Translations under genes and position numbers: made by a program
Source: Escherichia coli
Lineage (GTDB): Bacteria > Pseudomonadota > Gammaproteobacteria > Enterobacterales > Enterobacteriaceae
Assembly: GCF_050920415.1 (NCBI RefSeq)
Contig: NZ_CP169309.1
DNA length: 64,000 nucleotides
Reading direction: 5' to 3' (one strand)
Part shown: positions 3,693 to 4,756 of the stretch, piece by piece
Layout: every line of letters begins with the position of its first letter
Numbering within the stretch: the first letter of the stretch is position 1
Notes under the pieces: model-generated
Database searches by the model: none
What the model saw: only the letters and a program-made list of their open reading frames with translations
Told to the model about the DNA's origin: nothing

Positions 3693-4547
3693 ATGATGAT
3701 CAATAAACAAAAATTAGTCAACCCTGAAAACTTGCCAGTTATTGAGTGGCAGGGAGTACGTGTAGTTACCACCGAAACGTTGGCGGCGGGATATGGAACA
3801 ACGCCAATCCGTATACAACAGAACTACATTCGAAACGAAGATCGTTTCGTTGAGGGTAAACACTTTTTCAAAATCAGCGGTGATGAGCTGAAATCTTTCC
3901 GACTATCTTTTAGCGAGTCGGTTAATAAACATACAACATCACTTGTCCTCTGGACAGAACGCGGCGCTGCCCGCATGTCAAAAATCGTCGATACAGACGA
4001 GGCCTGGTTGTTCTTCGAAAAAATGGAGCAGGCGTATTTTCGTAAAGCAACGCCTTCTTCAAACACTATTCCAGACTTTGACGATCCGATCGCTGCTGCT
4101 GAAGCGTGGATTGAAGCCAAAAAATCCGAACGCCTTGCTCTCGGGTATGCAGAGCGTCAGGCTCGCTACATCAGCAAACTCGAAAGCCATCTCGCCGATG
4201 GCATCACTCCTGTGCAGTTCTGCAAACAGCTCAACGGTGTAAACACTCGTCAGATTAATGCGTTCCTTGAAGAGCGTAACTGGCTGTATGACGACCGTCC
4301 GGAGGCTATGTATCCGCGCTGGCGTGTAAAAGCGTATGCACGTGACCAATACCTGACTGAGCGTTCTGGGCAGGTTGAGCAGGAAAACGGGGAAATGCGC
4401 GAGATTTTCAAACCACTCCTGAAGAAAAAAGGTGCCGCCTGGTTATATCGCCATTATCTGAACGGCGAACTACCTATGAAGAAAACATGGGATGGGCAAT
4501 TTACCCATAACACTGAGCTCGCGAATCTTTTACAGGAGAGCAAATGA
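3693..4547 (+). CDS. Phage antirepressor-like protein (ORF6N/Ant-type N-terminal domain)
   Basis: N-terminal LPVIEWQGVRVVTTETLAAGYG...RFVEGKHFF resembles antirepressor N-domains; early-operon position. Confidence 0.55.
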   Translation: MMINKQKLVNPENLPVIEWQGVRVVTTETLAAGYGTTPIRIQQNYIRNEDRFVEGKHFFKISGDELKSFRLSFSESVNKHTTSLVLWTERGAARMSKIVDTDEAWLFFEKMEQAYFRKATPSSNTIPDFDDPIAAAEAWIEAKKSERLALGYAERQARYISKLESHLADGITPVQFCKQLNGVNTRQINAFLEERNWLYDDRPEAMYPRWRVKAYARDQYLTERSGQVEQENGEMREIFKPLLKKKGAAWLYRHYLNGELPMKKTWDGQFTHNTELANLLQESK

Positions 4548-4756
4548 TGCAAACCAAGACATGTGTAACTGGTGATGTCGATCTGAAACCTTGCCCGTTC
4601 TGCGGAAATCCGGAAGTACAACTCATTGAGGTGAAATATTTTCTGGATGGCGATGATGGTTATTACGTCGCATGTACTTGCTGTAACGCAAACCAGATTC
4701 CTGATTCGAAAGAACGTGCTGTTCATGACTGGAACCAGCGCGAAAACGCGGATTGA
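4544..4756 (+). CDS. Lar-family restriction-alleviation protein
   Basis: 70-aa protein with CPFCG ... CTCC four-Cys arrangement typical of the Lar family; overlaps upstream stop. Confidence 0.6.
   Translation: MMQTKTCVTGDVDLKPCPFCGNPEVQLIEVKYFLDGDDGYYVACTCCNANQIPDSKERAVHDWNQRENAD

Follow-up and report, generated by a model that had tools for sequence, protein, structure and literature searches.

Experimental knowledge of the Lar family is limited to Rac Lar, described in 1995 and again under the name RalR in 2014, and to a homologue in phage Bas63; in the other literature that we found, Lar occurs as an annotation name only. According to King & Murray (1995; cited in PMC4041452 and PMC11482910), Rac Lar/RalR (b1348, the founding member of the families PF14354 and TIGR03655) alleviates restriction by EcoKI and enhances modification. 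The Bas63 homologue was reported to be conditionally important, depending on the host strain (PMC11482910). Guo et al. (2014, PMC4041452) describe RalR/Lar as a non-specific DNase toxin that does not inhibit restriction-modification. According to the same report the toxin is neutralised by RalA, a convergently encoded sRNA of 179 nt whose pairing partner is a 16-nt stretch within the ralR coding sequence. The strains of that study are BW25113 derivatives carrying hsdR514, and its searchable text contains no EcoKI assay; the restriction-alleviation result of 1995 is therefore not clearly overturned. Over 12,000 sequence clusters carry the label 'restriction alleviation', which goes back to a single experiment on a single protein of 64 aa, and that protein was later re-interpreted as a DNase toxin.

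Lambda Ral, which alleviates restriction and enhances modification in type IA systems, resembles the protein described here in presumed phenotype and logic only: both are small (66-70 aa) early phage proteins, and Ral is said to modulate EcoKI-type enzymes (PMC12707154). The two proteins show no sequence relationship (BLASTP E = 4.5), and no Ral family is among the matches of a Pfam scan at E ≤ 0.1. Ral lacks the signature CPFCG...WNxR, and its gene is located in the pL operon, adjoining N and sieB, whereas the present gene is located in a cro-side operon.

A Lar gene in a prophage early operon

The DNA analysed here is a 64-kb stretch of Escherichia coli sequence (the window), in which positions 4544-4756 on the plus strand hold an ATG-initiated open reading frame of 70 codons followed by a TGA stop, as seen in the ORF listing and in the raw sequence. 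The encoded protein of 70 aa (MMQTKTCVTGDVDLKPCPFCGNPEVQLIEVKYFLDGDDGYYVACTCCNANQIPDSKERAVHDWNQRENAD) contains six cysteines (8.6%), with the motif CPFCG at residues 17-21. Coordinates, length and motif had been given correctly in a first-pass annotation of this DNA, which also assigned the protein to the Lar family and named a profile search against that family as the test. The search returns matches above the curated cut-offs, and the assignment is borne out in Pfam (PF14354 Lar_restr_allev, 43.2 bits versus a cut-off of 28.6, model positions 2-57 of 58), NCBIfam (TIGR03655 anti_R_Lar, 49.5 bits versus 39.6, model positions 1-54 of 55) and PHROGs (phrog_599, 'Lar-like restriction alleviation protein', E = 3.4e-14). 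The signature of the protein consists of LKP-CPFC-G, a spacer of 23 residues, CTCC, a further 15 residues, and WNQR. Of the 221 Lar domains in the top family representatives, 168 contain CPFCG, proposed beforehand as a family motif. The spacer between the second knuckle and the tryptophan comprises 16 residues in 128 of these 221 domains and 15 residues in 29, and WNxR, with a variable x, is the dominant motif across the representatives.

The family itself is large. A profile search, run exhaustively, yields at E ≤ 1e-3 a total of 12,392 representatives of clusters at 50% identity from many phyla, 101 of them at E ≤ 1e-10. Repeats are frequent: at least two Lar domains are found by the full motif in 47 of the 157 top relatives, and at least two matched stretches in 91 of 150 relatives among the matches listed. 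One DnaE1 is known whose C-terminal domain is replaced by a Lar-like domain (PMC3919608). The PADLOC library of defence systems contains no match for the protein.

The family assignment is correct and already known, and we claim no novelty for it, since an identical protein carries the name in RefSeq (WP_000983808.1, 'Lar family restriction alleviation protein'). The gene and its flanks are 100% identical to NZ_CP169399.1, where PGAP places the gene at the same coordinates and the prophage adjoins yecE. Among 5,426 complete E. coli genomes the gene is found in 16 (at least 95.8% identity), with the same name every time. Such genes are routinely labelled in phage genomes, and as a discovery the present one has little weight; the useful point is one of caution.

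The surrounding DNA is a lambdoid E. coli prophage. A CI-like repressor with a helix-turn-helix (HTH) domain and an S24 peptidase domain (2494-3189, minus strand; PF01381, PF00717) is encoded divergently from the early operon. The first gene of this rightward operon encodes a Cro-like HTH protein (3317-3616, plus strand), which matches PF15943 above the cut-off and PF14549 (P22_Cro) below it (22.7 versus 30.2 bits), and which is named 'transcriptional regulator' in locus L001. The Lar gene is flanked on its 5' side by an antirepressor-type gene of 284 aa (3693-4547, plus strand) that combines an N-terminal ORF6N domain with a C-terminal KilAC/ANT domain (PF10543, PF03374, phrog_63). On its 3' side are two ORFs of the 'ash/Rha' type, the first at 4753/4774-5433, and a phrog_1153 gene of 77 aa with a sub-threshold match to DUF4222 (14.1 versus 27 bits). 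Genes for O-like, DnaC-like and DnaB replication proteins are found further downstream (6498-9689). The location in an early operon, as first proposed, is consistent with this arrangement: the Lar gene shares its strand with the Cro-like gene and follows it, ahead of the replication genes. It is therefore expected to be repressed in the lysogen and expressed upon induction or infection. Lar homologues of 51-72% identity occupy the same slot, 3' of cro and 5' of the replication genes, as seen in the gene tables of loci L003, L004, L005 and L006 and in the O-like and DnaB matches of L026 and L027. The Rac-type member, represented by ralR of K-12 and the closely related P0018, is located elsewhere, namely after recT in the leftward operon and near xis-int.

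The window is rich in short ORFs, its first 10 kb containing 78 of at least 40 aa, and hence the length of 70 aa alone is no proof of a gene. The abundance of such frames is what speaks for a chance ORF or a mis-annotation, with no gene at 4544-4756, an explanation to which we assign next to no probability. The curated cut-offs are passed in two family models, and a Shine-Dalgarno sequence (AGGAG, 4534-4538, plus strand) precedes the ATG by 5 nt. The start overlaps the stop of the ORF6N-KilAC gene in the sequence ATGA (4544-4547, plus strand), implying that translation of the Lar gene may be coupled to that of the upstream gene; comparable stop/start overlaps are found in the homologous loci L004, L005, L010 and L011. 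In comparisons with homologues encoded on two metagenomic prophage contigs and 66-69% identical in protein sequence, dN/dS is 0.15-0.19 (pN 0.22-0.28; pS 0.69-0.77, which is saturated), and the gene is under strong purifying selection. The predicted zinc ligands are invariant, the position is kept across diverse phages, and PGAP calls the gene at the same coordinates in the 16 complete E. coli genomes. Taken together, the two family models, the ribosome binding site with the overlapping start, the dN/dS values, the invariant residues and the PGAP calls establish the ORF as a real gene, and the selection and profile evidence effectively refutes the view that there is none. It is the only ORF with a Lar domain in the 64-kb window, the next-best ORF having E = 0.08.

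Zinc-ribbon architecture and comparison with Rac Lar/RalR

The protein contains two predicted zinc knuckles, C17-P-F-C20 (4592-4603, plus strand) and C44-T-C-C47 (4673-4684, plus strand), followed by the family motif WNxR as W63-N64-Q65-R66 (4730-4741, plus strand) in a predicted C-terminal helix. Neither homologue alignment (A1 or A3) shows any variation at C44, C47, A59, W63, N64 or R66. All nine sequences of A3 have C17 and C20, as does every sequence of A1 that covers the region; P0008, a member of A1, starts after the first knuckle and hence lacks both residues. Position 46 is occupied by C, S, H or R in A1, and because it varies, the predicted ligands are those of the pattern CxxC...CxxC, with C46 not among them. 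The protein would thus be a single-domain ribbon in which C17, C20, C44 and C47 hold one zinc ion, with a small beta-sheet followed by the WNxR helix. An AlphaFold2 model built from a ten-sequence alignment (pLDDT 83, pTM 0.65) places strands at residues 3-7, 25-32 and 38-44 and the helix bearing WNxR at residues 56-64.

A Foldseek search of this model against the PDB returns nothing significant and no nuclease-like match, and no sequence relatives of the protein were found in the PDB. From the viral structure library BFVD only Lar-labelled proteins are returned, with TM-scores of about 0.43-0.73. The modelled fold suggests, as an inference and not as proof, a generic four-cysteine zinc ribbon of the Elf1-like kind, suited to binding rather than to catalysis. 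Elf1 is a eukaryotic and archaeal elongation factor of RNA polymerase II. The likeness to the Elf1-type zinc ribbon (PF05129; PDB 6ir9, chain M) holds only at the level of a generic four-cysteine ribbon and is not evidence of a common function. We know of no residue required for restriction alleviation.

Compared with K-12 Lar/RalR, the protein shows 33% identity over 60 residues (BLASTP E = 1e-9). Both belong to the same domain family and share the elements KP-CPFCG, a second CxxC and the WNxR helix within a single domain of about 65-70 aa, and both genes are found in an early operon of a lambdoid prophage. The present protein differs by an insertion of 7 residues between the knuckles. Its gene is located in the cro-side rightward operon, whereas the Rac gene follows recT in the leftward operon, and it has neither a RalA sRNA nor an rcbA/ydaC neighbour. 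Against the RalR equivalog model NF007260 the protein scores 26.1 bits, below the cut-off of 113. The window gene is therefore a member of another subgroup than Rac lar/ralR, in both position and sequence.

Membership in the family of RalR (PF14354/TIGR03655), the reported DNase toxin neutralised by RalA (PMC4041452), together with the weak sub-threshold match to NF007260, raises the question whether the gene encodes a RalR-like type I toxin, namely a small non-specific DNase that depends on Mg/Ca and whose production an antisense sRNA normally represses. The distance of the NF007260 score from its cut-off argues against this, as do the searches for an antitoxin. The Rfam model of RalA (RF02694) has no match at E ≤ 1 in positions 1-12000 of the window and none at the gathering score in the whole 64 kb, whereas the K-12 control scores 225 bits. 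An exact reverse-complement search of the Lar gene for stretches of at least 12 nt finds none, though the same search also misses the K-12 ralR/RalA pair, and exact 11-mer complementarity across the whole window amounts to 4 occurrences versus 3.1 expected. A mismatch-tolerant scan (14 of 16 positions) does detect the pairing published for K-12, located 100 nt past the ralR stop. For the Lar gene it gives a single match, 820 nt upstream, which at about 0.3 estimated chance matches is chance-level.

The residues linked to toxicity are likewise largely absent. Mutations at positions 14, 37, 39, 49, 51 and 52 are reported to lower RalR toxicity (PMC4041452). Of these six positions, which are indirect markers and do not define an active site, one is conserved, N51 (N64 here); the others read C14 to N22, T37 to Q51, Y39 to I52, R49 to D62 and K52 to Q65. 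The position of K52 varies across the whole Lar family (R in 62, K in 24, Q in 20 and T in 17 domains, as well as E). The modelled fold also argues against a nuclease, being that of a simple zinc ribbon for which the fold search returned nothing nuclease-like, and the gene is part of a lytic early operon, predicted to be coupled to another gene and with no convergent sRNA adjacent to it. We therefore regard a RalR-like toxin as very improbable; a toxin-antitoxin arrangement is absent at this gene. Since the subgroup represented in the window has none of the toxin-antitoxin hallmarks, it offers a clean test case for the general activity of the family.

The native Q65 was also considered as the equivalent of an inactivating change 'K52Q' and was rejected as such. 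The text of PMC4041452 names the change A154G inconsistently, as K52Q and as K52G, and the stated A154G encodes K52E.

The antirepressor-type neighbour and the candidate function

Directly 5' of the Lar gene, each of the 16 E. coli genomes and 13 of 13 near-identical IMG/VR contigs carry an antirepressor-type gene. The N-terminal domain of this neighbour is swapped in some of them (KilA-N in place of ORF6N), with the C-terminal KilAC part of about 160 residues 95-100% identical. In the phages Fostie and SaltyDalty a Lar homologue (37-42% identity) directly follows an ORF6N-KilAC homologue (40-41% identity), and by the annotated coordinates the two genes share a stop/start base; the backbone of these phages differs, the operon running on to xis-int. 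An ORF6N homologue is also encoded just upstream in the lineages at 61-65% Lar identity. In the lineages at 66%, 53% and 51% Lar identity (L004, L005 and L006, respectively) the relation is found downstream: in L005 and L006 the gene that follows encodes Rha or ORF6N, and in L004 the gene four positions on encodes KilA-N. No antirepressor-type neighbour is found in L003, L026 and L027 (72% identity), and the Rac-type member after recT has no such partner. L028 (68%) and L030 (49%) match none of the queries, the replication genes included, and are uninformative on neighbours. The underlying scan of viral contigs, with alignment A1 and the pattern A[IV]H[DNG]WNQ, found close relatives only, so that the survey of neighbourhoods covers just the enterobacterial subgroup. 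Within this scope the linkage is recurrent and not obligatory; the counts are raw ones for this accessory-gene slot, and we take the linkage as a low-probability lead to an alternative function.

Such a linkage could reflect a zinc-ribbon accessory of an antirepressor or immunity-bypass module; the protein would then have no role in restriction and would act with the upstream KilAC protein, for example as its partner or regulator, or on another host target. The constancy of the KilAC half 5' of the gene in the 16 genomes and 13 viral contigs argues for such an accessory, as do the pair of Fostie and SaltyDalty, still adjacent on another backbone after divergence to about 40% identity, the ORF6N homologues just upstream at 61-65% identity, and the Rha, ORF6N or KilA-N genes nearby downstream in L005, L006 and L004. 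An Elf1-like ribbon, as modelled, would also suit the binding of protein or nucleic acid. The lineages at 72% identity and the Rac-type member, both without such a neighbour, point the other way, as does the tendency of accessory genes in general to collect between cro and the replication genes. The ten longest family representatives contain only Lar repeats and no fusion to KilAC, ORF6N, Rha or an enzymatic domain, which again speaks against a partnership. On balance we consider an accessory of this kind unlikely. A more specific version, in which the cro-side Lar subgroup forms the zinc-ribbon half of a conserved two-gene KilAC cassette and is no anti-restriction factor, appears improbable. 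Under it, the pair would have co-diverged to about 40% identity and stayed adjacent, with coding regions that abut or overlap by a few bases, and the two proteins would act jointly on a target of the host or prophage, for instance in immunity bypass or another form of counter-defence. If it were true, the label 'restriction alleviation' on thousands of phage genes would be unreliable.

The candidate function that we put forward, with confidence and doubt about evenly matched, is that of an early, non-enzymatic zinc-ribbon modulator of host type IA restriction-modification, by analogy with Rac Lar. The first-pass annotation had likewise offered counter-defence against type I restriction as no more than a candidate role, which is its proper standing. 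The cro-side early promoter of the prophage would drive the gene, which would be silent in the lysogen and would yield its product within minutes of induction or infection, with translation coupled to the ORF6N-KilAC gene. By homology to Rac Lar, the small protein may bind a host target and modulate it without any enzymatic activity, and by the same analogy this target would be a type IA restriction-modification complex of the EcoKI family. Restriction would be lowered and the modification of unmodified phage DNA sped up, and replicating or co-infecting genomes, together with progeny, could escape restriction. The analysis shows that the gene is real, that it belongs to the Lar family with a zinc-ribbon architecture, and that it is placed in the early operon with no toxin-antitoxin arrangement; we infer both the target and the anti-restriction phenotype from Rac Lar.

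An anti-restriction factor requires early expression. The family cut-offs, the signature, the AlphaFold2 ribbon, the BFVD matches, the selection on the gene and the conserved slot are in favour of a role in restriction alleviation, as are the EcoKI result reported for Rac Lar and the host-dependent importance reported for the Bas63 homologue. Counting against it are an identity of only 33% to the sole characterised member and the dispute raised by Guo et al. (2014, PMC4041452). Function transfer is weak because the family is enormous (12,392 cluster representatives). The recurrent linkage to antirepressor genes likewise counts against a role in restriction and could point to another role.

The downstream ash/Rha reading frames

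The order of genes given in the first-pass annotation, with the Lar gene between the antirepressor and the Rha paralogs, is as found. The description of the paralogs as simple protein genes needs amendment, their 5' halves being tandem genes for the isrK sRNA and the C4 antisense RNA. An isrK and a C4 element begin each of the two 'ash/Rha' ORFs, at 4828-4904 and 4929-5016 in the first copy and at 5481-5557 and 5582-5669 in the second, all scoring above the Rfam gathering scores. When the two copies are compared, the three codon positions share the substitutions of the RNA stretch about equally (22/23/22, dN/dS 1.03), whereas those in the Rha part follow a coding pattern (51/37/70). The N-terminal halves, labelled 'Phage_ASH' in Pfam and 'ash family protein' by PGAP, are therefore probably translated RNA genes that belong to a control module of the P1 immI-like (c4-ant) type.

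RNA genes beneath the 'ash/Rha' reading frames

The two 'ash/Rha' ORFs located between the Lar gene and the replication genes, both on the plus strand (4753/4774-5433 and 5415-6287), enclose two tandem copies of a unit in which a C4 antisense RNA (RF01695) comes after an isrK sRNA (RF01394). Both copies (4828-5016 and 5481-5669, plus strand) exceed the Rfam gathering score in all their RNA matches, and they are located exactly beneath the N-terminal 'Phage_ASH' (PF10554) halves of the two ORFs. A comparison of copy against copy, and hence of two sequences only, results in 22, 23 and 22 differences at the three codon positions of the RNA stretch, i.e., no bias, with a dN/dS of 1.03; the Rha part, likewise compared between only two sequences, has 51, 37 and 70 differences, a coding-like pattern. 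The RNA models beneath the PF10554 halves, together with the flat codon-position pattern, argue that the annotation 'ash family protein' probably represents translated RNA genes of a control module of the c4-ant type, similar to immI of phage P1.

Visual inspection of the sequence gave a possible sigma-70 promoter for isrK (TTGATT, 17 nt, TACACT) at 4793-4821 (plus strand), with a second copy at approximately 5446-5474. The candidate falls within the 89-nt direct repeat D1 and ends 7 nt before the Rfam start of isrK (4828); it matches 8 of the 12 consensus positions and is below the threshold of the promoter scan. Further sRNA matches above the gathering score are found downstream of the prophage replication/nin-like region, namely the Hfq-binding families STnc490 (11891-12005, plus strand, 72 bits) and STnc100 (12205-12393, plus strand, 114 bits).

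The antirepressor-type gene upstream of Lar

The antirepressor-type gene (3693-4547) was compared with its counterparts in the homologous loci L012 (2159-3004), L010 (2647-3501) and L011 (2635-3501). The gene shows domain shuffling: some prophages have ORF6N as its DNA-binding domain at the N-terminus and others have KilA-N, while the KilAC half at the C-terminus remains near-identical, as does the Lar gene. The antirepressor-type gene and the Lar gene are still adjacent at about 40% identity in the phages Fostie and SaltyDalty.

Repressor region and a mutant designation

The CI-like repressor of the window (2494-3189) is a single intact ORF of 231 aa. At the corresponding locus of strain MFDS1022581 (NZ_CP169399.1, 10096-10784), PGAP instead places an S24 peptidase gene and a separate gene for an HTH protein, which suggests either that this copy of the repressor is disrupted or that the split is a start-site artefact. 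Two prophages of this genome each carry a copy of the Lar gene. The repressor is adjoined by a second HTH protein (153 aa, 1887-2348, minus strand), whose weak PADLOC matches to the HTH part of the RmrA and capH models (E-values of 6e-8 to 1e-3) probably reflect just generic HTH similarity.

PMC4041452, the paper on RalR/RalA, gives the inactive control mutant of RalR as A154G but uses two names for it, 'K52Q' and 'K52G'. According to the genetic code, A154G in ralR (K-12 locus, 2734-2928) changes AAA to GAA, that is, K52E.
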